A stretch of 64,000 nucleotides of DNA from Chloroflexota bacterium (GCA_965243625.1 CBDEVI010000002.1:1839751-1903750), one strand, 5' to 3'; positions 35,672-55,056 are shown, counted from the stretch's first letter. A program made the numbers and translations. The notes: generated by a model from the sequence alone, not told the origin.

Positions 35672-36352
35672 CTAGCAGCCGCTGTAGATAGTCATGCTGG
35701 GTAGGCAGCCGAAGTTGATCTTGGTGGTCCGAATCGTGACTTCCTCCACCGGCGCCGACGTCTCGCCGTCCGGTCCCGGACCCAGCGCCACGCCGCCGAT
35801 CTTGTCCAGCGTCGCCAACGACGGCGCGTGGTTCTCCTTGACGCGTCCGAAGATGGTGTAGTTGGGCGGCAACTCGGCGTCCGAGAGGTCGTTGAGAATG
35901 ATGTAGAAGCGTGATCCGTTCGAGTTTGGCGCGCCGGTATTGGCCATGACCAGATCACCGCGACGGTAGGGCTGCTGCGGGGCCTCGATCTCGAACGTAT
36001 AGCCCGCGTCGCCCGTTCCCGTGCCGGTGGCGTCGCCGGTCTCGATGAGCACGCCCGGCACCACGCGATGCACGGTGATGCCGTCGTAGTAGCCCTCCTG
36101 GGCCAGGAACAGGAAGCTATTGACCGCCCGCGGCGCCTCTTGCGGCACCAGGTTGAAGGTCATCCGTCCAAGGCTCGTGGTGAGAACGACGCTGTAGGGT
36201 CGAAGCTCCTCAACCGTCATCTCCGGCTCGGCGGCGAACGTCGGCGGGCCCTCGGGCTCCGCCTCTCCGCACGCGGCGACCGCAACTGCCGCGATCGCTA
36301 CGACCAACGCAATCACGATTGCTCGCCACATTGACGTTTGCTCCGCATCCAT
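35672..36352 (-). CDS. Cyclophilin-type peptidyl-prolyl cis-trans isomerase, lipoprotein, with C-terminal Cys-X11-Cys tail (…KINFGCLPSMTIYSGC)
   Basis: The cyclophilin core 'FHRVVPGVLIETGD', 'GYTFEIEAPQQPYRRGDLVMANTGAPNSNGSRFYIIL' and signal 'MWRAIVIALVVAIAAVAVAACGE' (lipobox). The track ORF extends to 36583; the start is chosen at the Met before the signal peptide. Confidence 0.8.
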   Translation of the reverse strand: MDAEQTSMWRAIVIALVVAIAAVAVAACGEAEPEGPPTFAAEPEMTVEELRPYSVVLTTSLGRMTFNLVPQEAPRAVNSFLFLAQEGYYDGITVHRVVPGVLIETGDATGTGTGDAGYTFEIEAPQQPYRRGDLVMANTGAPNSNGSRFYIILNDLSDAELPPNYTIFGRVKENHAPSLATLDKIGGVALGPGPDGETSAPVEEVTIRTTKINFGCLPSMTIYSGC

Positions 36353-36430
36353 CCGCCGGTTCTCCCGACATTCTGCCGTGTCGGCCGCCCTCTCGCCATG
36401 CAAGGCCCGCTGAGCTGACCAACGACCCGC

Positions 36431-37249
36431 ATGCGCTACGGTTTGCGGACGCGCCCGGAACGCCGGCAGGCGAGAGGGGAGTTCGTGAGCGTCGACATCG
36501 ACCAATGCGTCGCCGACGTCCTGGACATTGGCCACTGCGTCTTGCCCAATCACTTTCCCAAGTCGGCGATCGACGCGTTCCACGAAGGATTCCTACCGCT
36601 GCTGGGGGAGGTGGCGGCCCGCATTCCCGAAGGCAATCGCCGCGCCAACCGCTGGGCCATCGGCCTGCCCTTCGCCCCGCCGTTCTATCAGTCCGCGTTC
36701 TTTGGGGACGACACGGTGAACGAGATCGTGGGACGCATCCTGGGCGAAGGCATGTTCATCGCCTACTACGGCACCGATACGCCGGTCGCGGGATCCGAAG
36801 ACCAGCAGGTGCACTCGGACATCCGCCCGCTGTTCCCGGAGCAACCGGACCTGCGCTATCCGCCGCCGACGCTCTCCGTGCGGTTCACGAGCGTGGACAT
36901 GGCGCTCGAAAACGGGCCCTACAGCACGTCGGAGCGCACCCAGCACCTCACGCGCGACGAGGCACAGGCCAAACTCGCCGCGGGGGAGATCGAGCTCGCG
37001 CCGCTGCTGCTCCGCGCCGGCGACGTGCTCATCAGCGACGCCCGCACGCTGCACCGCGGCACGGCGAATCGCACGGACGAGCCGCGTCCCTTCGCCGTGA
37101 TCGTCTACAACCGCGACTGGTACCACCTGGAAGGCGAACTGCGGCTGGAGGCCAACGAAAACACGCCGATGCTGCTGGAGTCGTTCTACCAGTCGCTGCC
37201 GCCGGCCGAGCAAAACCTCCTCCGGCGAGTACCAAGGACGGATGGCTAG
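36431..37249 (+). CDS. Phytanoyl-CoA dioxygenase (PhyH)-family Fe(II)/2-oxoglutarate oxygenase
   Basis: 'QVHSDIRPLFPEQ' (HxD...) and 'LHRGTANRT' (distal His/Arg) in a double-stranded beta-helix family context. 272 aa; an alternative start is the GTG at ~36485. Confidence 0.65.
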   Translation: MRYGLRTRPERRQARGEFVSVDIDQCVADVLDIGHCVLPNHFPKSAIDAFHEGFLPLLGEVAARIPEGNRRANRWAIGLPFAPPFYQSAFFGDDTVNEIVGRILGEGMFIAYYGTDTPVAGSEDQQVHSDIRPLFPEQPDLRYPPPTLSVRFTSVDMALENGPYSTSERTQHLTRDEAQAKLAAGEIELAPLLLRAGDVLISDARTLHRGTANRTDEPRPFAVIVYNRDWYHLEGELRLEANENTPMLLESFYQSLPPAEQNLLRRVPRTDG

Positions 37250-37811
37250 GACACGGCGCCCGATCGTCCGAGCGGCTGCCGAGACGCGCCTGGTTGTCGT
37301 CCCCTACGATCCGGAGTGGCCGGCCATGTACGAGCGCGAACGCGCGGAGATTTCCGCGTGCATTGGTCAACACATCCGGCGCATCGAGCATGCGGGCAGC
37401 ACGTCGATTCCGGGCATGGCCGGAAAGCCGACCATCGACATCATGGTGGGCGTCCGCGACTGGGACGCGGCCAGGGTCACCTTCGGGCCGTTGGCCGAGA
37501 TTGGATGGGAGTTTCGCGGCGAGCGCGGCATGCCGCGGCGGCACTTCTTTCGCCGGCTCAATGCGCAGGGCCGCCGCACGCACCAGCTGCACATGCTGGA
37601 AGTGACCCACCCCGACTGGGTCGCGATGCTGCTCTTCCGCGACTATGTGCGCAGCCATCCGGACGTGGCGGCGGAGTATCAGCGGCTGAAGCTTGACCTG
37701 GCGCGGAGGTATCCGAACAGCAGGGGCGCGTACACGGCCGGGAAGGAGGCGTTCGTAATGAGGGTGCTGGAGCAAGCACGGCGAACGCCTGACGAGACGA
37801 CGGAAGGGTGA
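37242..37811 (+). CDS. GrpB-family protein (UPF0157; nucleotidyltransferase-fold, glutamate-rich protein GrpB)
   Basis: 'VVPYDPEWPAMYERERAEI...IEHAGSTSIPGMAGKPTIDIMVGV...RRHFF...HLHMLEV..PDW...LLFRDYVRSHPDVAAEYQRLKLDLA' matches the GrpB family end to end. Confidence 0.75.
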   Translation: MARTRRPIVRAAAETRLVVVPYDPEWPAMYERERAEISACIGQHIRRIEHAGSTSIPGMAGKPTIDIMVGVRDWDAARVTFGPLAEIGWEFRGERGMPRRHFFRRLNAQGRRTHQLHMLEVTHPDWVAMLLFRDYVRSHPDVAAEYQRLKLDLARRYPNSRGAYTAGKEAFVMRVLEQARRTPDETTEG

Positions 37812-37883
37812 TCTCGCCGTCCACGCGACCGTTTCGTCGCTAGACTTGACACCGTGCGGTCGACTAGATGAAGGGTCGGCATC

Positions 37884-38732
37884 ATGACGCTTTCCGACCA
37901 GCAACTGGCGTTCTTCGAGACCTTCGGCTACCTGACCTTTCCCGGAGCCTTCGCCGACGAAGCCGAGAAGATCACCGAGGCGTTCGAACAAGTGTGGGCG
38001 GATCATGGCGGCGGCCACAACCGGCAGGCGCACGATCATGAGCGCCGGTCGGCCCTGGTCCCGTTCATCGACCAGAGCGAGTATCTGAGCGCGCTGCTGG
38101 ACGACCCGCGCATCGACGGCGTTGTCAGCGCGTTGCTTGGCGACGATTACAACTACACCGGGAGCGACGGCAACTTCTACGTGGGCGACACGCGTTGGCA
38201 CTCCGACGGGTTCGCCCGCATGAAATACCGCTCCATCAAGATCGCGCTGTACCTGGACCCCGTCACGCGCGACTCCGGGTGCTTGCGGGTGATTCCCGGC
38301 AGCCACATTCGCGGTGACGGCTATGCCGAGGGGCTGCAGCAGATCATGCCGAGCAGTCGGTCGACGTCGCTCGAGGAGCACCTGGGCGTCGAAGGCCGCG
38401 ACGTGCCTGCGGTGGCGCTGGAATCGCAGCCGGGCGACATGGTGCTGTTCATTCACGACCTGAAGCACGCGTCGTTCGGCGGCGGAACCCGCCGGCGCAT
38501 GTTCACGATCAATATGTCCCAACGCTTCGCAGACGAAGACATCGAGGCGCTGCGGGAGGACGTTGCGACGATGGTCAGGTTCTGGGCCGAGCGGGCGTAC
38601 GGCGACGTGATGATCCAAACCGCCGGTCCGGGCCGCATGCGGCATCTGGAGCAACGGCTGGCCAACGACGACCACTTGCCCGAGCTTGTGCGCCAGGCCC
38701 GCCGGGAGATGCACGAGCCGTCCCGCAGCTAG
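37884..38732 (+). CDS. Phytanoyl-CoA dioxygenase (PhyH)-family Fe(II)/2-oxoglutarate oxygenase (second copy)
   Basis: 'MTLSDQQLAFFETFGYLTFPGAF', 'WHSDG' (HxD), 'GCLRVIPGSH' and 'HDLKHASFGG' are typical of PhyH. Confidence 0.75.
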   Translation: MTLSDQQLAFFETFGYLTFPGAFADEAEKITEAFEQVWADHGGGHNRQAHDHERRSALVPFIDQSEYLSALLDDPRIDGVVSALLGDDYNYTGSDGNFYVGDTRWHSDGFARMKYRSIKIALYLDPVTRDSGCLRVIPGSHIRGDGYAEGLQQIMPSSRSTSLEEHLGVEGRDVPAVALESQPGDMVLFIHDLKHASFGGGTRRRMFTINMSQRFADEDIEALREDVATMVRFWAERAYGDVMIQTAGPGRMRHLEQRLANDDHLPELVRQARREMHEPSRS

Positions 38733-38828
38733 CCCGCGTGCCGCTCCCACGATCGCAGAAGGCGGTTGCCACTGGAGGCCGCTAGGCTGTGCGCACCGCC
38801 ACAGCAACAAGCCGGCATGGGTGAAGCA

Positions 38829-40124
38829 ATGACCAAGACGATTCCAGGCGACCACGAGTGTTTCAGCGAGGACTGGCGGCGCACCGATCCCGACCTGGTG
38901 CTCTATCTGCCTGAGGAGCCCTCGTACTGGATCGAGGCGGTGGACCACGTCCTGGTGGACGTCACGCCGGGCGGCGACCTGCTGGCGATCTTCGCGCTGG
39001 CCAGCCAGCCGCACGGGGCCGACTATCGGGTGGCGTACTCACGCAGCGCCGACGGCGGCCGGACGTGGTCGCCGGTGGGCGTCATCGACGGTCCGGGGGC
39101 CAAGCCCGGACAGGTGAGCGCCTTTGGATTCCCGGTCATCAGCCGGCGCGGGCGCATCTACTGCTTCTACAACCACGGCCGAGCGATCGGCGACAGCTAT
39201 CAGACGAGCTTTCTGCGCTGCAAGTACTCGGACGACGACGGCCGGACCTGGATTAACGGGGAGGTCGTGATTCCGTACCGCTCCAGCGCCAACGACCACC
39301 CGGACCGCTCCATCGGCGCCAACTGCGTGGTGTGGCAGAAGCCCATCCGCGACGCGCAGGGCCGCCCCATCATTGGCTTCACGCGCTGGACGAACTCCTA
39401 CGTCAAGACGGCACGCCGCGAGGACGACTTCACCATGTCTCGCCGCGATAGCCAGGCGGAGTTCATGCGGTTCGAGAACATCGACGACTCACCACATCCG
39501 CGCGACGTTGAGATCACCTGGCTGCAAGACGACGACACGGCCATTCGGGTGCCGGTGCCGTACGAGCCCGAGGCTTCACGCAACTATTCCTATTGCGAGG
39601 AGCCCAGCGCGGTGCTGCTGCCGGATGGCCGCCTATTCACCGTGGCGCGTACGGCGACGGGGCAGATCTGGTACACAGTTTCGACCGACGACGGCGTCAC
39701 CTGGCGGCCAACGGAACCGCTGCTGAACCGCGACGATGGCCGGCCCATGCTCAACCCAGTCTCGCCGTGTCCCATCTTTGCGCTGGAGGACGGCCGGTTC
39801 CTGCTCATGCTGCAAAATCATGACGGGCATGGACACGGCGGTCGCGGGCCCCGCGACTTTCATGCGCGGCGTCCACAGTTCATCGCCGTGGGCGAGTTCC
39901 GGCCCAACGCCCACCAGCCAATCTGGTTCAGCCAGCCCCAACTGCTCTTCGACACGCAGAACATCGGGGTGTTTCCCTTCTACATGAAGTGGCTGTCGAT
40001 GTACGCCAGCGTCACGGAGCATCGCGGCGAGCGGATTCTTTGGTACGCCGACCGCAAGATCTTCGGCCTGGGACGCTACATCACGGACGAGCTGCTGGCC
40101 CCGTTGACGGTTCCCTCGGGATAG
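38829..40124 (+). CDS. BNR/Asp-box repeat glycoside hydrolase, sialidase (exo-alpha-sialidase)-like beta-propeller; no signal peptide seen
   Basis: Three Asp-boxes: 'SRSADGGRTW', 'SDDDGRTW', 'STDDGVTW'. The start is chosen at the Met of 'MTKTIPGD'; the track ORF starts at 38766. Confidence 0.65.
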   Translation: MTKTIPGDHECFSEDWRRTDPDLVLYLPEEPSYWIEAVDHVLVDVTPGGDLLAIFALASQPHGADYRVAYSRSADGGRTWSPVGVIDGPGAKPGQVSAFGFPVISRRGRIYCFYNHGRAIGDSYQTSFLRCKYSDDDGRTWINGEVVIPYRSSANDHPDRSIGANCVVWQKPIRDAQGRPIIGFTRWTNSYVKTARREDDFTMSRRDSQAEFMRFENIDDSPHPRDVEITWLQDDDTAIRVPVPYEPEASRNYSYCEEPSAVLLPDGRLFTVARTATGQIWYTVSTDDGVTWRPTEPLLNRDDGRPMLNPVSPCPIFALEDGRFLLMLQNHDGHGHGGRGPRDFHARRPQFIAVGEFRPNAHQPIWFSQPQLLFDTQNIGVFPFYMKWLSMYASVTEHRGERILWYADRKIFGLGRYITDELLAPLTVPSG

Positions 40125-40207
40125 CCCGGAATCTGGCGGGGCGCTGCTACGATTGGCGCCCCAATTCCCGCAGGACGCGCGGGGCTCCCCGAAATCGAGA
40201 CGGCTCC

Positions 40208-41062
40208 ATGGCGATAGAGGTCAGGCCGATTTCGCGCGCCCTCGGCGCGGAGGTCATTGGCGCCGACTTGACGCAGCCGGACGACGACGAGCAGTTCGAG
40301 GTCATCCACCAGGCGCTGCTGGATCACAACGTGGTCGTCATCCGCGACCAGCAGATCTCGCCGGCGGACCACGCGGCGTTCAGCGGCCGGTTCGGCAAGC
40401 TCGAGCTGCACGTGTTGAACCAGTTCCTGCTGCCCGAGCAGCCGGAGGTCCTGGTGCTGTCGAACAAGCGCATCAACGGAGTGCCCGTCGGACTGCAAGA
40501 CGCGGGCCGCGAGTGGCATAGCGACCTCTCCTACATGCGACTCCCCTCGCTGGGCTCATTGCTGTACGCGTTGGAAATCCCGCCGACCGGCGGCGACACG
40601 CTTTACGCCAATCTCTATTCGGCCTACGAGACGCTGTCGCCCGAGATGAAGGAACGCGTCGAAGGGCTTCGGCTGCGGCACTCCTACGCCGACTTCATTA
40701 ATCGCCGGTTCCAGGAGTCCGCGATGGAGCGGCCCACGCTGACCGCGGAGCAGGCGGCCAAGGTGCCCACGGCCGTGCATCCGTTGGTGCGCACGCATCC
40801 GGAAACCGGCCGCAAGGCGCTGTACGTGAGCCCGTCGCTCGTGGCCGGGATCGACGACATGGACGACGCCGAGGGACAGGCGCTGCTGCAAGAGCTCAAC
40901 GACCACGCCACGCAGCCCGAGTTCGTCTACCGGCACGTGTGGCGGCTCCACGACATCGTGTTCTGGGACAACCGCTGCACGCTGCACCAGGCCACGGCAT
41001 TCGACCCGAAATACACGCGCCACATGCACCGCACCACAATTCAGGGCGACCTGCCGGTCTGA
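40208..41062 (+). CDS. TauD/TfdA-family Fe(II)/2-oxoglutarate dioxygenase
   Basis: 'WHSDLSY' (HxD), 'GGDTLYANLYSAYETLS', 'HVWRLHDIVFWDNRCTLHQA' (distal His) and 'TRHMHRTTIQG' (Arg). 284 aa from the Met of 'MAIEV'. Confidence 0.8.
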   Translation: MAIEVRPISRALGAEVIGADLTQPDDDEQFEVIHQALLDHNVVVIRDQQISPADHAAFSGRFGKLELHVLNQFLLPEQPEVLVLSNKRINGVPVGLQDAGREWHSDLSYMRLPSLGSLLYALEIPPTGGDTLYANLYSAYETLSPEMKERVEGLRLRHSYADFINRRFQESAMERPTLTAEQAAKVPTAVHPLVRTHPETGRKALYVSPSLVAGIDDMDDAEGQALLQELNDHATQPEFVYRHVWRLHDIVFWDNRCTLHQATAFDPKYTRHMHRTTIQGDLPV

Positions 41063-41087
41063 CCGACGGCTGCCGGGTGCACCTCGC

Positions 41088-41915
41088 GTGAGCGCCGGGT
41101 CCAGCAAGTCCGTCGATCCCGACGGTTCCTACACGGCGGCGAATCGCGCCGCCTGGGACGCGATTGCGGATAGGCGGCAGAAGATTTGGCCGCCGGCGGA
41201 GTTCTTCGCCGAGGGCGGGTCGGTGCTCGACAAGCGCGATCGCGAGGCCGCCGGCGACGTGCGGGGACTGCGGCTGTGCCACTTGCAGTGCGGGAGCGGG
41301 GAAGAGGCGCTCTCGTGGGCGAACTTGGGCGCCGAGGTGACTGGCGTCGACATCAGCCCGAAGCAGATCGAGCTGGCAACCGCCAAGGCCAAGGCAGCTA
41401 GGATCTCCGCCGACTTTGTCGTGGCAGATGTCGACGCGCTCTCCAAAGCCCCGCTGCCTCCCGGGACTTTCGACATCGTTTACACGGGCGGCGGCGCCCT
41501 CGTATGGATCCCCGATCTCGACCGCTGGGCAGCGCCGGTGCAGCAGCTTCTTAGACCTGGCGGACGGTTAATCTGTCGGGAGGAGCATCCCGTTATCGGG
41601 TGTGTCGAGGTCCGCGACGGCTCGATCGCACTCACGGAGGACTACTTCGAGCGTCAGCCCCAGCCGGCCACCGGTTGGCTTCACTTTCCCGGCGGCGAAA
41701 GCGCCCCCGAGACCTATTGGGGGTTCACGTGGACGCTGGGCGAGATCATCACGAGCCTGGCGCAGGCCGGTCTCCGCATTGAACGCTTGGCGGAGTTTCC
41801 GAGCACGGCCACATGGCGTTTCGGCGACGATTTGCCGCGTCTTCAGAAACTGCCGGGCTCGTTTCTTCTCGTTGCCAGCAAGCCTTCCGACGTCGGTCGA
41901 CAAGCACCCGCGTAG
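41088..41915 (+). CDS. Class I SAM-dependent methyltransferase
   Basis: 'LRLCHLQCGSGEEALSWANLGAEVTGVDIS' (motif I GxGxG region), 'FDIVYTGGGALVW' (motif II) and 'LLRPGGRLI' (motif III). Confidence 0.7.
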   Translation: MSAGSSKSVDPDGSYTAANRAAWDAIADRRQKIWPPAEFFAEGGSVLDKRDREAAGDVRGLRLCHLQCGSGEEALSWANLGAEVTGVDISPKQIELATAKAKAARISADFVVADVDALSKAPLPPGTFDIVYTGGGALVWIPDLDRWAAPVQQLLRPGGRLICREEHPVIGCVEVRDGSIALTEDYFERQPQPATGWLHFPGGESAPETYWGFTWTLGEIITSLAQAGLRIERLAEFPSTATWRFGDDLPRLQKLPGSFLLVASKPSDVGRQAPA

Positions 41916-42012
41916 GGCGATTGGCTCACGAGCCGCCGACGTGGGAGACAGGCGGGATCCGTGGCTCAAGCGGCGCGAGAACGTGAGCGCTTAGAGCTGC
42001 ACCCTGTCGAAT

Positions 42013-43911: not shown

Positions 43912-43934
43912 AAAGAACGGTCGTCTCGACGCTG

Positions 43935-44927: not shown

Positions 44928-45067
44928 GTGCTCCCCTCAAGAGGCCCGCACTGGAGATCTGCGACCGCGGACTCCCGACGAGGATAGATTCCTCTCCCCG
45001 GGGCCATACGACCACATACTCGCCACTCGCGGGCCGCATAGCTCAATTTCGCTTGCGCGATCGTGAC

Positions 45068-45976: not shown

Positions 45977-46002
45977 AACTGCAGCGGAAGCCGACGAGTC
46001 CG

Positions 46003-47028
46003 CTATACGCTTGGCCAGCCGTCGGGAATCTCGTTGGCGTCGAGCGCGGACTTGATGGCTTCGGCGGCCTCGGGCGTCACCCAGCCTGACCATACGCTCA
46101 CGTTGCTCTTGAGCCACCAGAGCGCTGTTTCGTTGATGCTGGCATCCCTGTTTTCGAGCCGCCACTTGCCGACGTCTTTGTAGAGTTCGAGATTTAGATT
46201 CCAGGCCCGCAGCATCTCGACGATTTCCGGCGCCCGATCAGGGATATCTCGATGCACGGCAATGGAAATCGTGGCGTCTCGGTAGGCGCAAGCCCTCGTC
46301 GTATCCCAGCACTCATCGGTGTACTCGGGCTCCTTCAATCGGACCAGATCAAGCTCCGCCGCCGGATCGTTCGTGCCCCATTGATATCCAAGCCACGGTT
46401 CCCGTCGCTCGTATGCGCCGTAGAGGTCGGCATTCGCCGCTGCGCCGTCTCCTGGATTGATGATGTGGACATGGTCCGAGAGTCCATAGGCCTCGATCTG
46501 CTGGGCGTTGATCTCCTCGCACACCCACCCGATGACGCAAGACACCAGCCGCGCTTTACCGCGCGTTTCGACCGTGGCGAACAGCGCCTTGAACTTCTCG
46601 TCTTTCAGATCCTCGACACTGTCCAGCTCCGGATACTGCTCCTGAAGGTATGCGGGGATTACGAATGCGGACTGCCAGTCGCGGCCGAGGCTTTCGCCGA
46701 CCAATTCGACGTCGCCCGCTGCCAGCGCATCCACCCAGGCATCTTCCTGGTTCGGCAGCCAGATCTCCATGGTCACGTGGGTGTCGCCTCGGCGCAGTCC
46801 CTGCAACAACGGAAGGGTGGCGCCGAATACCAGATCGGTCGGGTAGCCGTAGCCCTTTTCAACGAGGTATTGGGCGACGCGATTCTGAAACTGCGCACTG
46901 GTCCAGTTCAGATCGCTGAAGACGATGGGGTCCTTCTCCGCAACGACTTCAGTCTCGGAGCAGGCGGTTCCAAATATGACGGCAATCAGCGCAATTGCCA
47001 TGACCGATCGTCTGGACATGGCCAACAT
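46003..47028 (-). CDS. Glycine-betaine/proline-betaine (ProX/OpuAC-type) ABC substrate-binding lipoprotein; orphan (no permease/ATPase adjacent)
   Basis: Signal 'MAIALIAVIFGTACSE' (lipobox), 'IVFSDLNWTSAQFQNRVAQYLVEKGYGY' and later Trp-rich cage residues ('WLGYQWG', 'ALWWLKSNVSVWSGWV') typical of betaine binders. Confidence 0.7.
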   Translation of the reverse strand: MLAMSRRSVMAIALIAVIFGTACSETEVVAEKDPIVFSDLNWTSAQFQNRVAQYLVEKGYGYPTDLVFGATLPLLQGLRRGDTHVTMEIWLPNQEDAWVDALAAGDVELVGESLGRDWQSAFVIPAYLQEQYPELDSVEDLKDEKFKALFATVETRGKARLVSCVIGWVCEEINAQQIEAYGLSDHVHIINPGDGAAANADLYGAYERREPWLGYQWGTNDPAAELDLVRLKEPEYTDECWDTTRACAYRDATISIAVHRDIPDRAPEIVEMLRAWNLNLELYKDVGKWRLENRDASINETALWWLKSNVSVWSGWVTPEAAEAIKSALDANEIPDGWPSV

Positions 47029-47212
47029 GCGTCAGGTCTCCCTTCTCATTTCCCTCAGGCTGCTTTCAGAGTGCCTGTTGGAGATACCGTCATCGTGCAA
47101 TCGGGAATCACCGGCCCCGATTCGAGGATGCTACTGCCTGCGTTCCGGTCCGGCCAATCGTCAGGGCCGGGCCTGCATGCCACTTCGCATTCGGTGATCT
47201 GACGCGGTCCCG

Positions 47213-47638
47213 CTACAGCACGCCCTTGGTGAGAATCAAGTTGCCGTAGAGCCGCCGCTCGCCGGTGGCGACGATCGCGAAGGCCCGCCGCGCCCGCTCG
47301 TAGAAGGCGAAGCGCTCCACCCGCTCGAAGCTCACGGGCGCCCCGTGGGCTGCCTCGACGAGGCGGCGGAAGTCGGCGAAGACGGGCCGCTCGGCGTCCG
47401 GGTCGCCGACCACCGCCATCACCGCCGCCGGCGCCTCGACATACTCGTCGAGCGGCAGCACCGACAGGATGGCCTGGGCCGTGCGCGTGGCGTCGACGCC
47501 GTCGAGGCGCACCAGCCGCCGGGCGCTGGCTTCGGCCGGAAAGTTGGCATCGACAATCACGATCTCGTCGCCATGCCCCATGGCCGCAAGCACACGCAGC
47601 AGATCCGGTCCAAGGAGGGGGTCGATGCCTTTCAGCAT
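47213..47638 (-). CDS. RbsD/FucU-family sugar mutarotase (D-ribose pyranase / L-fucose mutarotase)
   Basis: 'MLKGIDPLLGPDLLRVLAAMGHGDEIVIVDANFP' is the family N-terminal signature. ~141 aa from this Met; the track ORF extends to 47749. Confidence 0.7.
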   Translation of the reverse strand: MLKGIDPLLGPDLLRVLAAMGHGDEIVIVDANFPAEASARRLVRLDGVDATRTAQAILSVLPLDEYVEAPAAVMAVVGDPDAERPVFADFRRLVEAAHGAPVSFERVERFAFYERARRAFAIVATGERRLYGNLILTKGVL

Positions 47639-47739
47639 GAGGGCGTTCCTTAGCGTTGGCGCGGCGGCATGGTGGCACATGCGGACGGATATGCTCCGCA
47701 GCATGGGCGAAGACGAAGCGAACGGACCGGGGAGGCGCT

Positions 47740-48930
47740 GTGACGTCACGCGCTAACTCGGACCGCACTGGCGCGGAGGGCGCTGGCCCGGCGCTCAAGG
47801 AGTTCGTCGAGCACGTGCCGGTGACGCTCAACGATGCCGGCGACACCGCCGGCTGGGTGTCCAAGGAGTCGGTCGACCGCCTGTGGATCGAAGCGGACGG
47901 GGAGCTGGTCAGCCAACTCTGGGTCGTCGATGTCACGGTGCGAGCGTGGGGCGCCGAGCTGCGCAGCGCCGGCGTGGCCGGCGTGGGGACGCCCGAGCCG
48001 CATCGCATGAAAGGCTACGCCCGGCGGCTGATGGAGGCTTGCGAGCGGTATTCGGCCGACCGCGGCTACCCGATCAGCACGCTATTCGGGATTCCGGACT
48101 TCTATCACCGCTTCGGCTACGCCTCGGTCTGCCCGGAATACGAAATCCGGATCGAACTCGACGCCCTCGAGACGGATGGGCCAACCGCTTCGCTCGAGGA
48201 TCTCCAGCCCTCGGATTGGGATCCAATTGCTCGCATGTGCAACGCGGCGTACGGATCGCTCGACGGCTCGGTCGTCCGGCGCGAAGGCGCGTGGCGAGGT
48301 GCCAGGCAGGGTACGGATTGGTTCAAGAAACCCCAGGCGCTGGTGAGTCGCGATGCGCACGGGCAACCTGCGGGGTACGCGGTGGTCGACACCGAGCTGA
48401 CGGACGGTTGCCTGTCGGTGTCGGAAGCGGCGGCGCGCGATGACGCCGCTGGGAGAGCCCTTGCGAGCGGTTTGGCCGAGATGGTCAGATCGCGCGGCGC
48501 GACGGGCCTGCTGGCCAGTCTGCATCCGGGCACGGGGTTGGGACCGCTGCTGACTCGACTTGGTGGCGCGGTCGAGGTGACACGACCGGACGACGCCGGC
48601 TACATGGCGTGCATCGTCGATCTGGACGCCATGTTGCAGAGGTGCACGCCGGCGCTCGTCGACCGTGCAGCGGCCGGCGAGCTGCCATTGCCCGAAACGC
48701 TGCAAGTGAAGACCGATATCGGCCATGGCTGCATCGCGCTCGGCGGACAGTCGCCGCCCGCCGAGCTGTCAATCGGTCGGCGAGGGCTCGTGCAGCTTCT
48801 GTTCGGTTACCGGACGTTTGGAGAACTTCAGGAGATCGGCCAGGCCCGCGCGACCGGCGTCTCCGACGCCGTGCTAGCGAAACTCTTTCCACGCAATGAC
48901 GGCTACTGTTTCTGGCCCGACCGGTATTGA
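47740..48930 (+). CDS. Eis-like GNAT acetyltransferase (tandem GNAT folds plus C-terminal SCP2-like domain)
   Basis: 'VAGVGTPEPHRMKGYARRLMEACERYSADRGYPISTLFGIPDFYHRFGYA' (acetyl-CoA pocket, 'YGRFGY'-like) and a ~400-aa three-domain layout. The GTG at 47740 is preceded by GGAGG 5 nt upstream; the track ORF starts at 47656. Confidence 0.7.
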   Translation: MTSRANSDRTGAEGAGPALKEFVEHVPVTLNDAGDTAGWVSKESVDRLWIEADGELVSQLWVVDVTVRAWGAELRSAGVAGVGTPEPHRMKGYARRLMEACERYSADRGYPISTLFGIPDFYHRFGYASVCPEYEIRIELDALETDGPTASLEDLQPSDWDPIARMCNAAYGSLDGSVVRREGAWRGARQGTDWFKKPQALVSRDAHGQPAGYAVVDTELTDGCLSVSEAAARDDAAGRALASGLAEMVRSRGATGLLASLHPGTGLGPLLTRLGGAVEVTRPDDAGYMACIVDLDAMLQRCTPALVDRAAAGELPLPETLQVKTDIGHGCIALGGQSPPAELSIGRRGLVQLLFGYRTFGELQEIGQARATGVSDAVLAKLFPRNDGYCFWPDRY

Positions 48931-49006
48931 TGCGGGAGCCTCATTTGCGGTGGAACCCATCCAAGGCCAACCTCCGAAACTGAAACCGTCAGAGGGGTGT
49001 TGACCG

Positions 49007-49885
49007 TCAGCCGAACCGCTTGATGAAACCCGGAAACGTCCCCATCGTCGGCATCTCGAGGTCGAACGCTTCGTAGCCCGCGCGGCGGATCCGGTCCAGG
49101 ATTTCCGAATCACTCGGTCGGCACGGCGCCAGCATGAGGGCGGTCCCGCCGGGCTTCACCACACGATCGATCTCGCGCAGCTCCTCGTCCGGCTTCCAAC
49201 CGAACGATCCGTTGGTCAAAATCGCCGCGTCCACGGCGTCGTCGGTCAGCGGCACCCGCTCGACGAGCGCGTTGAGCGTGGTGACGTTGTGGAATCCGTG
49301 GGCGGACAGCTTCCGCTCGATGAACTCGCGCAGCACGGCGACAGGCTCCAATGCGAACACCCGCTCGGCGTAGGGCGCGCACCGCAGGGTGGCCTGGCCG
49401 GTGCCCGCGCCAATATCGAGGACCACGCGACCGCCTACGTCCACCCGGTCGTGAATCTCGCGAGGGTCCCAATGGCTCCACGTCAAGGCGTCCCACGTCG
49501 CCGGTGACTTGGCCATGCCGACGTTCCACGCGCAGCGTTGCAGGATCGCATCCTGCGTGGATCGCAACTCCTCAGGTGAAAGCGCCGGTGCATGGGCGCG
49601 AGCCGCTCGCAGTCCGGCACGGAACGTTGGCGAGGCCTTCGAGAAGTGGTCGATGACCTCGGGCAGCGGCATCAGCGCCGCGTACAGGCGATCCCCAAAC
49701 TCGCGCAGAAGCCCGGGTGTTCCGCGTTCGTCTTCTAGAAACGTATTGACGAAGTACGTGTCCAGGTGGCGCAAGTCCGAGAGCCGCAGATCGAACATTC
49801 GAATGGGATCGATCACCATTCGCGGCCAGCCACGGGCAGGTGCCGAGCTCACCGGCGTGGAGCGTTCGAATTCGCGGCGCAGCAT
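49007..49885 (-). CDS. Class I SAM-dependent methyltransferase
   Basis: 'VVLDIGAGTGQATL' (motif I), 'AVDAAILTNGSFGW' and 'VKPGGTALM'. Confidence 0.7.
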   Translation of the reverse strand: MLRREFERSTPVSSAPARGWPRMVIDPIRMFDLRLSDLRHLDTYFVNTFLEDERGTPGLLREFGDRLYAALMPLPEVIDHFSKASPTFRAGLRAARAHAPALSPEELRSTQDAILQRCAWNVGMAKSPATWDALTWSHWDPREIHDRVDVGGRVVLDIGAGTGQATLRCAPYAERVFALEPVAVLREFIERKLSAHGFHNVTTLNALVERVPLTDDAVDAAILTNGSFGWKPDEELREIDRVVKPGGTALMLAPCRPSDSEILDRIRRAGYEAFDLEMPTMGTFPGFIKRFG

Positions 49886-49898
49886 GGGGCGATGGGCG

Positions 49899-50603
49899 TC
49901 AGGACCCCAATACCAGCGCCGGCAGTTCGGTGAGGCGGGTTATTCGGGTGACGCCTGCTGGCTCGTTGCCTATGTCGTGACGGTCGAGCCACACGCCCGT
50001 GAGCCCCGCGTCGCGCGCCCCGATCGCGTCCACGGCCAAGCGATCGCCCACGTGCACGCACGCCGCGGGTGGCGCTCCTACGGCCCGGCAAGCTACCTCG
50101 AAGATGCCCGGATGGGGTTTCGCCACTCCTTCGTCCTCGGAAGCCACGACTGCCGCAAAGCGGTCCAAGACGCCAACCCCTTCGAGCTTCTGTCGCTGGT
50201 GCACCGACCCTCCGTTGGTGATGACACCGAGGCGGAAGCCGCGCAACGCCTCCACGGAGTCGAGGACGTCGGGGAACAGCTCCCAATTCTCTTCATAGGC
50301 ACGGCGGTAGACGGCGAAGGTCTCATCGGCTTCGGCGTCGGACATTTCGCTTGGTGTGACGTCGAACAAGTCCCGAATCCGCCACCGCCGTTGGCCGACA
50401 TAAGAGGTTTCGCCGCGCAGGTAGCGATCGAAGTGCAGCTCCGTCGAATCTTCCCAGCGCCGGAGAAGACTCTCGTCACTACCTGTGAGCCGGTCTCGGT
50501 ACCTGCTGAACATGCCAAGCGCTCCGGCGCGAGTGGCCGCGTCGTGGTCGAGCAGCGTGCCATCGAGGTCGAAGAAGACGGCTTGGATGGGTGAACCTGG
50601 CAT
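49899..50603 (-). CDS. HAD-superfamily hydrolase (subfamily IA)
   Basis: 'AVFFDLDGTLLD' (motif I DxDGT), 'GVITNG' (motif II), 'KPHPGIF' (motif III) and 'VHVGDRLAVDAIGARDAG' (motif IV). Confidence 0.8.
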   Translation of the reverse strand: MPGSPIQAVFFDLDGTLLDHDAATRAGALGMFSRYRDRLTGSDESLLRRWEDSTELHFDRYLRGETSYVGQRRWRIRDLFDVTPSEMSDAEADETFAVYRRAYEENWELFPDVLDSVEALRGFRLGVITNGGSVHQRQKLEGVGVLDRFAAVVASEDEGVAKPHPGIFEVACRAVGAPPAACVHVGDRLAVDAIGARDAGLTGVWLDRHDIGNEPAGVTRITRLTELPALVLGS

Positions 50604-50769
50604 ATGACGAAGTTGGGGAGGACGAGCTCAATTCGATCGCCTCCCGCAGCATATCCTGACGCCCTTGTCGCCAAACGGCTGACCGGCGATTGTCCGGACC
50701 TCCCTGATTCGGCCGATTGAGACCCCTGTGGGACTCGGACCGGCGATGGACTTTCGGACGAATCCTGGA

Positions 50770-50915
50770 GGCTTCGAGGTGAGGCGGCGGGTGGATTCCC
50801 GCCCCGTATCAAGTACGGGGCAGGCTCTTCGCGGGAATGACGGAGGGGTTACGCGAAGGCCTCCCTGCGATGGGACATGCTTCGCGGGAATGACGAGGGC
50901 TTTGCCGGAGTCTCC
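50770..50915. repeat. MITE/REP-like composite repeat with nested hairpin (GGGTGGATTCCCGCCCCGTATCAAGTACGGGGCAGG…CTTCGCGGGAATGACG ×2)
   Basis: Near-identical to the copy at 56.77-56.92 kb. Track ORF 50728..50934 ('VDSRPVSSTGQALRGNDGG…FAGMT') is its translation artefact. Confidence 0.6.
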
Positions 50916-51062
50916 AATTCAGGGGCGAATGTGAGAGACCCCCTATGGCGAGTCTCCGGCGCGGCTATGACAAAATCTCCAGTTGCATGAGGCCCAATGG
51001 CGTAGCCCGTGATGACAATCGGCGGGGATCCGGGTCCTGAGCCCAGCGTGATCGGCTGACCC

Positions 51063-51986
51063 ATGGCCACCCTCAGCGCGGCATGGACCGCGTCCCTCGG
51101 CTACACGCGCCGGGGACTGCGCATCCTGGGGGCGACTCCCTGGTTGTACGTCCAGATCCTGAGCGCGTTTGCGGCGCCGGCGGCGGTCGCCGCGTATGTG
51201 ACGGCATCGGACATTCCGGAGGGGTTTGGCCGATCGGCGCTGCTCTACGTCCTAAACGCCGTCTCGGCGTCGGCCGCGCCGGTCGTGGTGATGACGGCCG
51301 TGGCGGCTGGGTTTCATGGCGTCAACCTGGGCTTCATCAACGCCATGCGGCAGGGGCTCTGGTGGCTGCCGCGCTATCTGTGGACGAACGTGCACACCAC
51401 GGTCATCTTTTGGGCGCCGATCCTCGTCTTGTTGAACCTCTTCGAGTGGCAGCGGAACGAGGCGCCGGTCGAAGGCGCAGCGGGCCTAGCCGTGACGGCC
51501 GCCTGGGTGGTGCTGATCGGCGCCGCGGCTCTCTACATCCACTCGCGCACGCTCCTGGCACCGTTCTTCGCGGTGCATGGCAACTTGCCCGCCACGCTGG
51601 CGACGATCGAGTCGTGGCGCATGAGCGGCCGCCGCTTCCCCATCGTGTTCGGCACCTTCATCGTGTCGTCGGCGCCCACGGCGGTGCCGCTGGCGATTGT
51701 GCTGACGACGTTGGCGTTCACGCTTGACGAACCAAGCGGGACCAGGGCGACGTACGCGGCCATGCTGCCGGCGCTCGTGTGGGCGACCATCAAGCTCGTA
51801 CGGCCATTCCTCATCACGGCAACCTACGGCATGTATTCGGATCTCTGGACCGAGGAGCAGGCGCGGCGGGCGGAGCACGGGTCGCCTGCGGTGCCGTTAT
51901 TGGCGCGGCCGTTGCTGGCGTTTTCACGCTGGGTCCCGCGTCTATTCGGTCGCGCGATCGGGCGTCGCATCGAGTGGACCGCGTGA
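51063..51986 (+). CDS. Hypothetical polytopic membrane protein (no family recognised)
   Basis: 307 aa with good GC3 codon bias and ≥6 hydrophobic helices (e.g. 'ILSAFAAPAAVAAYV', 'AAPVVVMTAVAAGF', 'VIFWAPILVLLNLF', 'VTAAWVVLIGAAALYI'). Its stop overlaps the next start (GTGA). Confidence 0.5.
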   Translation: MATLSAAWTASLGYTRRGLRILGATPWLYVQILSAFAAPAAVAAYVTASDIPEGFGRSALLYVLNAVSASAAPVVVMTAVAAGFHGVNLGFINAMRQGLWWLPRYLWTNVHTTVIFWAPILVLLNLFEWQRNEAPVEGAAGLAVTAAWVVLIGAAALYIHSRTLLAPFFAVHGNLPATLATIESWRMSGRRFPIVFGTFIVSSAPTAVPLAIVLTTLAFTLDEPSGTRATYAAMLPALVWATIKLVRPFLITATYGMYSDLWTEEQARRAEHGSPAVPLLARPLLAFSRWVPRLFGRAIGRRIEWTA

Positions 51987-52912
51987 CCTCGCACCCACCG
52001 GCCATGGGTACCGCCGGCCGGCTAGTCCGGGCGCTGTCGCTCGACGCGGAACGGCGCGTGCGCGGCGGCAGCGTCGAGGCGCTCGCCGACGCGATCCGGC
52101 GGGGCGCCGACCTGCACATCGGCACGGAGTTCCGCCACAACGAGCACGTGGATACGTCGTCCGACAATCCGGAGGTCGTGCAGGAGCTGGCGGAATTCCG
52201 GACGACCTACCTGGTCGACGACCGCTGGACGGCGGGCATCATGACGCTCAGGCAGCCGGTGAGCCTGCCGGACGCCTTTGGCCCGCGGCCGTCGATGTCG
52301 TTTTTTCTCTACAACCAGGACGGCACGCAGGCCATTGCGCGACCGCACCTGGACGGGATGGCGAGCGCCGGCGCGACCGGCGCGGCGCCGATCGACAGCC
52401 ATCCCGACATGCCCAAGTATCACGTGCTGGACAGCTGGGACGCCGACTCCAACGCCCCGAGCAGCACCTTCATCTACGACTTCGAGCACTTCGACTTTCT
52501 GGTGCGGGACAACTGGACGGAGGTCCTGGCGCACGATGCCGCGGGGGCCGTCGTCCACGGTGCCGCAGGCGCACTGGGCGATGTTTGCGCCGACGGCGGC
52601 GAAGTCAAAGCCGCGATTCGCGGGCTTTGCACCGATCTCGCGGCTCGGGAAGTCGCCGCGACCGACCACGAGGTCTTCGTCCAGGTCGGATCGAGCTACT
52701 ACTACACGGATCAACGGCTCTTCATCGGCGGGACGCACCCGCTGCCGAGAGTCCGGGCATCAATTCCGCTGCGGTATGCGACCCGGGCCTGGGACTTTGG
52801 CTGGTTGATCTTGCGCACCGACGGCCGCGTGGTCCGCCGCCTGTGCGATCCCTACACGCTGCGCTTTCACGACAGCGAGTCGCGCCACGCGATCCGCTGG
52901 TTCGCGCGGTGA
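51983..52912 (+). CDS. Hypothetical protein (soluble, Asp/His-rich, no family recognised), translationally coupled to the upstream membrane protein
   Basis: Coding-like frame 'MGTAGRLVRALSLDAERRVRGGSVEALADAIRRGADLHIGTEFRHNEHVD…SWDADSNAPSSTFIYDFEHFDFLVRDNW…'. The start is GTG 51983 overlapping the stop, or ATG ~52004. Confidence 0.45.
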   Translation: MTSHPPAMGTAGRLVRALSLDAERRVRGGSVEALADAIRRGADLHIGTEFRHNEHVDTSSDNPEVVQELAEFRTTYLVDDRWTAGIMTLRQPVSLPDAFGPRPSMSFFLYNQDGTQAIARPHLDGMASAGATGAAPIDSHPDMPKYHVLDSWDADSNAPSSTFIYDFEHFDFLVRDNWTEVLAHDAAGAVVHGAAGALGDVCADGGEVKAAIRGLCTDLAAREVAATDHEVFVQVGSSYYYTDQRLFIGGTHPLPRVRASIPLRYATRAWDFGWLILRTDGRVVRRLCDPYTLRFHDSESRHAIRWFAR

Positions 52913-52920
52913 GCGTGTAC

Positions 52921-52941
52921 GGGCGGGTTTGAAACCCGCCC
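52921..52941. terminator. Perfect GC-rich hairpin GGGCGGGTTT-g-AAACCCGCCC between convergent genes (bidirectional terminator candidate; member of the GGGCGGGTnnnnnACCCGCCCCTACC family)
   Basis: 10-bp stem read directly. It lies 9 nt after the hypothetical-gene stop and 14 nt after the PPIase stop on the other strand. Confidence 0.45.
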
Positions 52942-52954
52942 CTACCTCAGACGC

Positions 52955-53623
52955 TCAGGGCCGGCAGTTGAAGCCAGCCGCGGTCGAACCGTCGCCGGAG
53001 CAATTGAGGGTCACGCCGGTTTTCATCGCCGAGATCGTGATCGCCTGCTGCGGCGCCGACGACTCGCCGTCCGCGGCCGTGCCGACCGGCACCGCCTCGA
53101 TCTTGGCCAACGTGTCGAACGACGCCTGGTGCCCTTCCTTGATCTGGCCGAAGAGCGTGAAGTCCGGCGACAGCCGGCCCTGCTCGCTGAGGTCGTCCAG
53201 GACGATGAAGAACTGCGAGCCGTTGGAGTTGGCCACGCCCTTATTGGCCATTGCCAGCCCGCCGCGGACGTAAGGCCGCTGCGGCGGCTCGATCTCGAAC
53301 GAGTAGCCCGGTCCTCCCGTGCCGGTGCCGGAGGGGTCGCCGCCCTGCACCATGAAGCCCGGGATCAGCCGATGGAACGTCACCCCGTCGAAGTAGCCCT
53401 CGTTGGCCAGGAATAGGAAGTTGTTGACGGCCAGCGGCGCTTCTTCGGAGAAGAGCGTGAAGGTCATGCGCCCCAGGCTGGTGGTGATGATCACCCAGGG
53501 CTCACCGGCGGGAATGTCCATGGCCGGATAGGCGGCGTAGGTCTTGGGGCCCTCGGGCTCGGCTTCACCGCATCCCACCACCACCACAACCAGCAGCAAC
53601 GACACCAGTGCGAGTCGCAACAT
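52955..53623 (-). CDS. Cyclophilin-type PPIase lipoprotein with C-terminal Cys-X11-Cys tail (…TLNCSGDGSTAAGFNCRP)
   Basis: 'MLRLALVSLLLVVVVVGCGEAEP' (lipobox), then the cyclophilin core 'FHRLIPGFMVQGGDPSGTGTGGPGYSFEIE…GGLAMANKGVANSNGSQFFIVL'. An AAGGAG Shine-Dalgarno lies 9 nt upstream. Confidence 0.8.
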   Translation of the reverse strand: MLRLALVSLLLVVVVVGCGEAEPEGPKTYAAYPAMDIPAGEPWVIITTSLGRMTFTLFSEEAPLAVNNFLFLANEGYFDGVTFHRLIPGFMVQGGDPSGTGTGGPGYSFEIEPPQRPYVRGGLAMANKGVANSNGSQFFIVLDDLSEQGRLSPDFTLFGQIKEGHQASFDTLAKIEAVPVGTAADGESSAPQQAITISAMKTGVTLNCSGDGSTAAGFNCRP

Positions 53624-53721
53624 TTCTCACGCTCCTTCGCCCGCCTCCGCACCGTCCGCATTGTCGCAGCGCGTCCAAGGCTTTGTCGCACGCGGATCAT
53701 GTGGTGGACGGTCAATGCCAC

Positions 53722-53741
53722 GGGCGGTTCGCGAACCGCCC
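53722..53741. terminator. Hairpin GGGCGGTTCG-CGAACCGCCC (same family as 52921)
   Basis: Read directly; it lies between the two duplicated PPIase genes. Confidence 0.35.
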
Positions 53742-53822
53742 CTGACCATGGTCGGGAGTCAGTTCACGTCGGTGCGGGACTTCGGCGCCGGCGCCTGAGC
53801 ACTCCGCGTCGGCGCCGAGTCC

Positions 53823-54485
53823 TCACGGCTTGCAGGTGAAGCCGATCGCTCCCTCGCCTGAGCAGTTGAGCGTCACGCCGGTTTTCATCGCCGAGATCGT
53901 GATCGCCTGCTGCGGCGCCGACGACTCGCCGTCCGCGGCCGTGCCGACCGGTACCGCCTCGATCTTGGCCAACGTGTCGAACGATGCCTGGTGCCCTTCC
54001 TTGATCTGGCCGAAGAGCGTGAAGTCCGGCGACAGCCGGCCCTGCTCGCTGAGGTCGTCCAGGATGATGAAAAACTGCGAGCCGTTGGTGTTTGGCGTGC
54101 CCTTGTTGGCCATCGCCAATCCGCCGCGGACGTAGGGCCGCTGCGGCGGCTCGATCTCGAACGAGTAGCCCGGTCCTCCCGTGCCGGTGCCGGAGGGATC
54201 GCCGCCCTGCACCATGAAGCCGGGAATCAGGCGATGGAAGGTCACCCCGTCGAAGTAGCCCTCGTTGGCCAGGAAGAGGAAGTTGTTGACGGCCAGCGGC
54301 GCCTCTTCGGAGAAGAGCGTGAACGTCATGCGCCCCAGGCTGGTGGTGATGATCACCCAGGGCTCACCGGCGGGAATGTCCATGGCCGGATAGGCGGCGT
54401 AGGTCTTGGGGCCCTCGGGCTCGGCTTCACCGCATCCCACCACCACAACAACCAGCAGCAACGCCACCAATGCGAGTCGCAACAT
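53823..54485 (-). CDS. Cyclophilin-type PPIase lipoprotein, tandem paralogue with C-terminal tail …TLNCSGEGAIGFTCKP
   Basis: Nearly identical to 52955..53623 apart from the last ~15 residues. The start is at the Met of 'MLRLALVALLLVVVVVGCGE'; the track ORF extends to 54620. Confidence 0.8.
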   Translation of the reverse strand: MLRLALVALLLVVVVVGCGEAEPEGPKTYAAYPAMDIPAGEPWVIITTSLGRMTFTLFSEEAPLAVNNFLFLANEGYFDGVTFHRLIPGFMVQGGDPSGTGTGGPGYSFEIEPPQRPYVRGGLAMANKGTPNTNGSQFFIILDDLSEQGRLSPDFTLFGQIKEGHQASFDTLAKIEAVPVGTAADGESSAPQQAITISAMKTGVTLNCSGEGAIGFTCKP

Positions 54486-54618
54486 TTCCCACGCTCCTTC
54501 ACCCGCATCCGCACCGTCGGCATTGTCGCAGCGCCTTCGCCTCTCCGTCGCGCGGTCGTGCGGTCGCAGTTCTAAACTGTTCCGTGCGTACTGGGCCGCC
54601 ATTGACAAGGGACGCGCC

Positions 54619-55050
54619 ATGACCCATCGCCTCTACCGGAGCCAGGTCGATCGCATGCTCACCGGCGTTGCCGGCGGGATGGCGGAATATCTGCGCGTGG
54701 ACCCGGTGATCGTCCGCATGCTCTGGGTGGTGGCCGTGTTCCTCTCCAGCGGCGTGGGGCTGCTGGTGTACGTCGCCCTGGCGATCGTCATGCCGACCGC
54801 TCCACAACTCGACGACGCCGTCGAAGCTCCGGATGACGCCTCGGCACAGACGGCGGACGGCAGCCAACCGGCCACACCAGCCCGATACGTCGCCGCCACG
54901 AACGGCGCCGCGCTTGTGGTGGGCTCGGCTTTGATCATCATCGGCGCCGCTGCGCTCATGAGCCAGTTCGGGTGGTTTGACGCCTGGCGGCTCTGGCCGC
55001 TGGCCCTGATCGCGATTGGCGGTCTGTTGATCTTCAACCAGCGGCGCTAG
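54619..55050 (+). CDS. PspC-domain membrane protein (phage-shock-protein-C family)
   Basis: 'MTHRLYRSQVDRMLTGVAGGMAEYLRVDPVIVRMLWVVAVFLSSGVGLLVYVALAIVMP' is the canonical PspC domain. It is followed by a second TM, 'LVVGSALIIIGAAAL'. Confidence 0.8.
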   Translation: MTHRLYRSQVDRMLTGVAGGMAEYLRVDPVIVRMLWVVAVFLSSGVGLLVYVALAIVMPTAPQLDDAVEAPDDASAQTADGSQPATPARYVAATNGAALVVGSALIIIGAAALMSQFGWFDAWRLWPLALIAIGGLLIFNQRR

Positions 55051-55056
55051 GCAAGC

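Follow-up and report, generated by a model that had tools for sequence, protein, structure and literature searches.

A 64-kb stretch of DNA from a Chloroflexota bacterium (about 67% G+C; referred to below as the window) encodes three lipoprotein cyclophilins, PPI1, PPI2 and PPI3, each of which ends in a short tail holding two cysteines. PPI2 and PPI3 lie head-to-tail, with 199 nucleotides (nt) between them, and represent an old tandem duplication that has undergone concerted evolution by gene conversion. The genes and the features associated with them are as follows.

35672-36331, minus strand: PPI1, lipoprotein cyclophilin; open reading frame (ORF) of 219 amino acids (aa) from MWRAIV, PF00160 E = 1.3e-30, tail ...INFGCLPSMTIYSGC (C209-X9-C219)
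36269-36331, minus strand: PPI1 signal peptide, lipobox V-A-A-C21, read from the sequence
35819-35830, minus strand: PPI1 insertion H168-A-P-S, found only alongside the tail
35675-35707, minus strand: PPI1 Cys loop, CLPSMTIYSGC
52955-53623, minus strand: PPI2, lipoprotein cyclophilin, downstream copy of the tandem pair; ORF of 222 aa, PF00160 E = 7.5e-37, tail ...LNCSGDGSTAAGFNCRP (C208-X11-C220)
53624-53674, minus strand: PPI2 duplicated 51-nt leader, with AAGGAG and TGCGACAATG (53658-53672)
53570-53623, minus strand: PPI2 signal peptide, lipobox V-V-G-C18, read from the sequence
53120-53131, minus strand: PPI2 insertion H165-Q-A-S (residues 165-168)
52964-53002, minus strand: PPI2 Cys loop, CSGDGSTAAGFNC, outside the gene-conversion zone
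52921-52942, minus strand: GC-rich hairpin directly 3' of the PPI2 stop codon, -23.5 kcal/mol, z = -3.6
53823-54485, minus strand: PPI3, lipoprotein cyclophilin, upstream copy of the tandem pair; ORF of 220 aa, PF00160 E = 1.2e-37, tail ...LNCSGEGAIGFTCKP (C208-X9-C218)
54486-54536, minus strand: PPI3 duplicated 51-nt leader, with AAGGAG and TGCGACAATG (54520-54534)
54432-54485, minus strand: PPI3 signal peptide, lipobox V-V-G-C18, read from the sequence
53982-53993, minus strand: PPI3 insertion H165-Q-A-S
53832-53864, minus strand: PPI3 Cys loop, CSGEGAIGFTC
53722-53742, minus strand: GC-rich hairpin in the 199-nt spacer 3' of PPI3, -22.3 kcal/mol, z = -2.0

PPI1, PPI2 and PPI3 are cyclophilin-domain proteins bearing a lipobox, as a first-pass annotation of this DNA had proposed; each is an ORF at the coordinates above and matches Pfam PF00160 (Pro_isomerase) over its full length (profile positions 2-158 of 159), with 107, 127 and 130 bits, respectively, against a cut-off of 21.7. 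The nearest NCBIfam models, PpiA and PpiB, fall far under their cut-off (74 bits vs 308). The N-termini (MWR...VAVAAC21 in PPI1, MLR...VVVVGC18 in PPI2 and PPI3) have Arg at position 3 followed by a hydrophobic stretch, and the mature N-terminus, CGEAEPEGP, is common to all three. The PROSITE lipoprotein pattern, applied here by eye, requires a positively charged N-region and a hydrophobic core ahead of a lipobox [LVI][ASTVI][GAS]-C whose Cys falls at residues 15-35. All three sequences conform to this pattern for Lgt/LspA substrates, from which acylation and signal peptidase II cleavage are predicted only. The open frame of PPI1 continues further, as far as 36583, with an alternative ATG 21 nt ahead of the start given here. 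Proteins identical to PPI2 (P0001) and PPI3 (P0011) are encoded on one 3.19-Mb NCBI contig.

Mapped onto human cyclophilin A (hCypA), the active sites of PPI2 and PPI3 match at R55, F60, M61, Q63, A101, N102, Q111 and F113, while PPI1 retains R55, A101 and N102 and is changed at the remaining five (F60V, M61L, Q63E, Q111R and F113Y). PPI1 falls within a clade of GCLP/GCRP-tailed proteins with a divergent active site, and its orthologues P0058, P0104, P0107 and L001 have tails identical to its own. The same replacement of F60, M61, Q63, Q111 and F113 by V, L, E, R and Y is seen across the PPI1-type clade (also P0058, P0059, P0069 and P0114), except that the L is replaced by F in P0069 and the Y by F in both P0069 and P0059. 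Q63E and Q111R look like a compensating charge swap between two glutamines that are normally in contact, and the activity or specificity of the PPI1-type paralogues may be altered.

Apart from the lipobox Cys, each protein contains exactly two cysteines, both within the last 11-15 residues, which bears out an observation made in the first-pass annotation. The spacing given there, Cys-X11-Cys throughout, holds for PPI2 alone (C-terminus NCSGDGSTAAGFNCRP, C-X11-C); PPI1 (GCLPSMTIYSGC) and PPI3 (NCSGEGAIGFTCKP) are both C-X9-C. Besides the three cyclophilins, no genuine ORF ending in two cysteines was found in the 64-kb window, the remaining matches of the scan being frames judged non-coding by position and base composition. 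The tail is thus not a general module within the 64 kb.

A protein search of about 5.8 billion sequences returned thousands of homologues, of which 113 full-length close homologues were examined. The named ones among the thousands come from Chloroflexi/Chloroflexota metagenome-assembled genomes, with taxonomy resolved to phylum. A tail with exactly two cysteines is present in 85 of the 113, for example FDDGCSATWSAC, EGCLPHGGSFQCS, SGCRPTHSYGPC and LKCTGKEGKGTGKC; the alignment positions of the cysteines are fixed, and the loops between them range from 6 to 15 residues. The other 28 are tail-less and end ...ITITSIEIREG. A single tail cysteine occurs in none (0/113), and the two tail cysteines behave as an obligate pair. 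Recurrence in 85 homologues at fixed positions shows that the two-Cys tail is more than a product of chance.

The tail is accompanied by changes in the core. A 4-residue His-x-Pro/Ala-Ser/Thr insertion ahead of the last helix is found in all 85 tail-bearing proteins and in 0/27 ordinary tail-less homologues. The sole exception to the pattern is P0040, in which both cysteines are gone, the insertion is degenerate and its His is lost. R52, L142, H165 and P167 are rarely found in the tail-less group but hardly vary in the tail-bearing one, H165 being invariant in all 85. A neighbour-joining tree of the core only (tail and insertion removed; without support values) sets the tail-less proteins apart in a single clade and divides the tail-bearing ones into two radiations, of PPI2/3-like proteins with a canonical active site and of PPI1-like proteins.

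Outside this group the tail is very rare. A profile scan with generic cyclophilin patterns of 80 species-representative genomes from many phyla gave no trace of it in 79, among the matches listed; the remaining one, Chloroflexota bacterium COS3_bin_17 (L001), has a PPI1-type tail. Of the 150 top-scoring cluster representatives at 50% identity, only P0123 and one PPI1 fragment had it. The proposal that the tail is absent from canonical cyclophilins thus stands, both for these genomes and for the tail-less Chloroflexota relatives, and alignment of the close homologues identifies the Cys loop as a conserved subfamily feature rather than an ordinary tail in which the cysteines vary, both being kept in 85 of 85. 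Since it is restricted to one lineage and coupled to core changes, the tail is an integral, co-evolved part of the fold and not an appendage. The subfamily appears, from these searches, to be known only from a group of uncultured Chloroflexota, and literature searches, including searches on Chloroflexi lipoprotein cyclophilins, found no published description of a two-Cys cyclophilin tail. Its signature (two-Cys tail, His-x-Pro-Ser insertion, R52 and L142) could be used in annotation. Several paralogues with differing tails occur per genome; one 3.38-Mb contig, for example, holds P0034, P0040, P0042 and P0295. The top-scoring 50%-identity representatives (P0121-P0146 and others) are 400-2800 aa long with 2-5 cyclophilin stretches, and may be either genuine multi-cyclophilin proteins or tandem genes that were merged during gene calling.

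AlphaFold2 models of PPI2 and PPI1 (mean predicted local distance difference test score, pLDDT, 81.8 and 85.1, respectively) both show a standard cyclophilin barrel. In the PPI2 model the tail contains two strands of 3 residues each (207-209 and 219-221), centred on C208 and C220, with a short turn between them. This placement fits a disulfide-closed hairpin. Foldseek matched solved cyclophilins at a probability of 1.00 with no match reaching into the tail, and a sequence search of the PDB agreed, its matches ending before the tail; the best of these, Streptococcus pneumoniae cyclophilin 7l6z (E = 4e-27), was the second-best Foldseek match.

Similarity between PPI2 and PPI3 extends from 51 nt ahead of the ATG (GCGCTGCGACAATGC...GAAGGAGCGTG.GAAATG) as far as the stop codon, and an AAGGAG ribosome-binding site lies 8 nt ahead of the ATG in the duplicated leader. 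The shared AAGGAG leader reported in the first-pass annotation is therefore present, at 51 nt rather than about 45. The element TGCGACAATG is situated about 37 nt upstream of both start codons and, in the alignment, is kept ahead of every copy in the related assemblies L081-L084; a GCGACA-like hexamer precedes it by about 18 nt. The two make candidate -10 and -35 elements inside the duplicated unit; a promoter and terminator consensus scan around the tandem pair found nothing. The hairpin 3' of PPI2 is a likely terminator, without a U tract. With its own upstream motif, ribosome-binding site and downstream hairpin, each of the tandem copies looks to be expressed.

At the DNA level the two copies share 95.8% identity over codons 1-205; in the tail, where there is also a 6-nt indel, the figure drops to about 76%; an overall figure of about 95%, as first given, describes the core and not the tail. 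There are 22 codons with synonymous-only changes, 10 replacements and one 2-codon indel. One replacement is in the signal peptide (S8A), four are at residues 130-141 (the MANxGxxNxNGSQFFI active-site loop), and five, with the indel, are in the tail. Divergence is thus strongly enriched in the tail, rather than confined precisely to the Cys loop as had been suggested.

Three independent assemblies, L081, L083 and the more distant L084, have the tandem pair in the same gene context, in the order PspC-like gene, 220-type copy, 222-type copy and two unknown ORFs. In a fourth assembly, L082, only the 222-type copy is present. In L084 the upstream copy, P0040 (4322-4966), lies 34 nt from its partner and has the tail ...TGAKKGVPSLHAI, lacking both tail cysteines and the coupled His; it may be a decaying or re-purposed copy. 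Recurrence of the pair in three independent assemblies excludes an assembly artefact, and the two copies also differ at 4% of sites and have distinct tails, 3' flanks and hairpins.

The neighbouring genes are likewise retained. Divergent from PPI3 is an envelope-stress-type module encoding a PspC-domain membrane protein and a LiaF-like protein (54406-55959, plus strand), found in the same arrangement in L081-L084. Convergent on PPI2 are two plus-strand ORFs, 51063-51986 and 51779-52912, without a Pfam or NCBIfam match and kept in all four related loci; one encodes a hydrophobic 307-aa protein and the other corresponds to gene calls of 303-309 aa in relatives.

Comparison of the pair across genomes separates the histories of core and tail. 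Over the core (codons 1-205) the two copies within a genome are 95.8, 96.7, 92.2 and 88.3% identical, and orthologues of different genomes are 89-93% identical (80-83% to L084). In the tail, identity is 73-84% between types within a genome and 90-94% within a type across genomes. Informative sites in quartets of two genomes and two copies grouped as follows.

Window vs L081: nt 1-614, by genome:by type 27:0; nt 615-666, 1:8; Fisher p = 3e-7
Window vs L083: nt 1-614, by genome:by type 22:2; nt 615-666, 1:7; Fisher p = 8e-5
L081 vs L083: nt 1-614, by genome:by type 21:0; nt 615-666, 0:6; Fisher p = 3e-6

The grouping flips from genome to paralogue type at nt 615. Paralogues within a genome are closer than orthologues and the signal is discordant along the gene, which is concerted evolution by gene conversion. 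The duplication took place before at least four genomes had diverged from one another. The near-identical core and divergent tail result from gene conversion of the core; as conversion spares the tail, the copies look as though they were diverging only in the loop.

Rates of synonymous (dS) and nonsynonymous (dN) substitution, estimated by the method of Nei and Gojobori with small tail codon counts, agree with this history. For the pair in the window, dS is 0.14 and dN 0.013 in the core, and dS is 0.82 and dN 0.18 in the tail, where dN/dS (omega) is 0.22 (about 5.5 nonsynonymous and 5.5 synonymous changes). Tail omega is 0.44-0.67 in two other genomes, with synonymous tail changes down to 2.5 across comparisons. 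As dS in the tail is about six times that in the core, the tail gives the true age of the duplication, which the core understates, and is not evolving fast. Between orthologues, tail dN is 0 and dS 0.27-0.52 in all seven close comparisons, and dN is 0.059 in the distant comparison of the 222-type tails of the window and L084.

Taken together, these observations can be accommodated in a single account, which we hold with a little more than even confidence. PPI1, PPI2 and PPI3 would be extracytoplasmic prolyl isomerases held at the cytoplasmic membrane by an N-terminal lipid anchor and, by comparison with lipoprotein foldases such as SlrA, they probably act on proteins leaving the secretion machinery. 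The tail (12-17 residues) and the His insertion are coupled additions. The role of the tail is most likely structural: the two cysteines would form an intramolecular disulfide that closes a short beta-hairpin, and this would pack on the end of the barrel beside the insertion. In the cyclophilin fold the C-terminus adjoins the N-terminal strand and faces away from the catalytic side, which would place the tail near the lipid anchor and off the catalytic face, where the hairpin would stabilize and protect the C-terminus of an exposed, membrane-proximal enzyme. The family has radiated to several paralogues per genome, each retaining its own tail sequence. In the tandem pair, recurrent gene conversion homogenizes the leader and codons 1-205 inside each genome, while the last 15-17 codons escape conversion, each tail having been frozen by purifying selection since before the genomes diverged.

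Several points weigh against parts of this account. The disulfide-bonded loop proposed in the first-pass annotation is plausible, given the strict pairing of the cysteines and a modelled strand on each, but the C208-C220 bond is one that we infer from a model in which tail confidence is only moderate (pLDDT about 66-85, and put at about 67 in the assessment of the disulfide). Dsb, VKOR and thioredoxin families were not found among the ORFs scanned in the 64-kb window, which is part of the genome. An invariant His gained and lost with both cysteines would fit a metal site too. The isomerase activity of PPI1 is less certain, its active-site residues being non-canonical, and the neighbour-joining tree carries no support values. 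The sharp conversion boundary may be neutral, since conversion tracts could be halted, with no selection involved, by the 6-nt indel and by the loss of homology beyond the stop codon; selection for two distinct tails would likewise produce a stop of conversion at codon 205.

Such selection is central to the alternative that survives best, although it is unlikely: that the tail is a paralogue-specific recognition loop, in which a disulfide scaffold presents a variable loop (6-15 residues) that docks each paralogue to its own partner, client class or envelope site, with selection for distinct specificities blocking homogenization of the tandem tails. The tails vary strongly in sequence and length between lineages and are invariant within them, as the absence of replacements between close orthologues shows; several paralogues with different tails occur in one genome, and the conversion boundary coincides exactly with the start of the tail. 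However, the same pattern within and between lineages is expected of a surface loop that has co-adapted with the core of its own protein, and the indel and end of homology suffice to explain the boundary. No partner gene is linked, the neighbours being unrelated metabolic genes and the PspC/LiaF-like pair, and dN/dS between paralogue tails is below 1. L082 has a single copy and the partner copy in L084 has lost its tail, so two distinct tails are dispensable.

It is unlikely, in turn, that the tail and its co-inherited His constitute a functional module, whether a redox or metal switch or a paralogue-specific docking loop, with tails selectively shielded from conversion. Should the tail prove to be more than a staple, the family would offer a compact natural example of foldase paralogues gaining different roles.

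The specific possibility of a metal site (Cys2-His, binding Zn or Cu) or of a reversible dithiol/disulfide that regulates the isomerase or gives thiol exchange is doubtful. H165 is indeed invariant in the 85 tail-bearing proteins and lost with both cysteines in P0040. However, a fourth conserved ligand was not found among the group-specific residues, and a loop length of 6-15 residues is unusually variable for a metal or redox-active motif. Homology to hCypA would put the C-terminus on a side remote from the catalytic face, and the location is extracytoplasmic, where Cys pairs usually end as stable disulfides. Redox-regulated cyclophilins do exist, SmCypA and AtCYP20-3 being cited as such in PMC4898713.

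Ongoing positive selection on the loop of a recent duplication, close to what the first-pass annotation had proposed as diversifying selection, is very improbable. Half of the PPI2/PPI3 replacements and the sole indel do fall in the last 15-17 codons, but tail omega across the duplicated pair is below 1 in the window and in the two other genomes, tail dS far exceeds that of the core, close orthologues show no tail replacements and the duplication is older than the split of at least four genomes. Least tenable of all is a C-terminal sorting, anchoring or cleaved signal of sortase/exosortase type, or an assembly artefact: the tail is terminal and Cys-containing, like some CTERM signals, and the copies are about 95% identical, but its 12-17 polar or small residues include no transmembrane segment or basic end, no NCBIfam sorting-signal model matches (only PpiA and PpiB at E <= 0.001), and it co-varies with residues inside the folded core. 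The known C-terminal sorting signals (LPXTG, PEP-CTERM, GlyGly-CTERM, MYXO-CTERM and similar) were rejected for lack of a hydrophobic run and of a model match, and the cleaved or sorting tail first suggested is not supported.

Elsewhere in the window, an OpuAC-type (glycine-betaine binding) lipoprotein (46003-47028, minus strand) has four cysteines after its lipobox, spaced as C-X5-C and C-X7-C. These two close pairs, as with the cyclophilin tails, fit a use of disulfides in the exported proteins of the organism. At 1868-7543 (plus strand), ORFs for a RecA-fold (ImuA-like) protein, an ImuB-like Y-family polymerase and a DnaE2-type Pol III alpha subunit lie in a row, an arrangement that is the usual damage-inducible mutagenesis cassette. 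Genes for tRNA-Val(TAC) (34005-34079, plus strand) and tRNA-Phe(GAA) (35305-35380, plus strand) flank a NUDIX-domain ORF (34315-35007, minus strand) whose product seems to begin with a signal-like hydrophobic segment and to contain two cysteines, features not usual in a NUDIX hydrolase. Three long ORFs, 11586-13037 (plus strand), 31615-33006 (minus strand) and 62682-63998 (plus strand), have a strong coding-type composition and no Pfam match at E <= 1e-5.

Concerted evolution of tandem paralogues is a general phenomenon, exemplified by the duplicated tuf genes of enterobacteria, in which paralogues are likewise closer than orthologues and the signal switches sharply along the gene. The cyclophilin pair is a textbook-style case with a clean mosaic boundary; unlike concerted evolution in general, the segment left unconverted here coincides with a small structural module that closes the repeat unit. 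The pair also offers a caution of method, as near-identical duplicates that differ in one loop mimic positive selection when, as here, gene conversion has erased their other divergence, and comparison of the same pair across related genomes settles the question between selection and conversion.

Escherichia coli PpiA and PpiB and human CypA have the same fold and share their catalytic residues with PPI2 and PPI3. However, PpiB and CypA lack a lipid anchor, and canonical cyclophilins lack the C-terminal Cys loop. Closer in architecture is streptococcal SlrA, a lipoprotein cyclophilin of monoderm bacteria (Hermans et al., 2006, as cited in PMC4898713). Lipoprotein cyclophilins of this type likewise consist of a lipobox signal peptide and one cyclophilin domain, located outside the cytoplasmic membrane, and are presumed to help exported proteins to fold. 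Core identity to the SlrA/7l6z type is only about 36-40%, however, and neither a two-Cys loop nor a His-x-Pro-Ser insertion was aligned.

For the tail itself, the closest published precedent is the AquaCyps of marine Alphaproteobacteria (AquaCyp293 and AquaCyp300), in which N-terminal extensions of 20-30 residues, C-terminal extensions of 50-60 residues and an insertion of 40-50 residues make up the NIC domain (PMC4898713). A conserved disulfide joins a core Cys to the C-terminal extension and was judged structural, away from the active site (PMC4898713). Both groups are exported cyclophilins with lineage-specific additions, a disulfide (here predicted) in a C-terminal extension and paralogue pairs that differ in active-site residues. 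They differ in that the AquaCyp domain is roughly doubled, whereas the additions here amount to 12-17 and 4 residues, the core is Cys-free and the tail holds both cysteines. Membership of the AquaCyps was rejected for PPI1, PPI2 and PPI3, which are 219-222 aa including the signal peptide, with no large insertion and no core Cys. Set beside these systems, the three proteins make a modest case, that of a lineage-specific, minor decoration of a very well-known enzyme.

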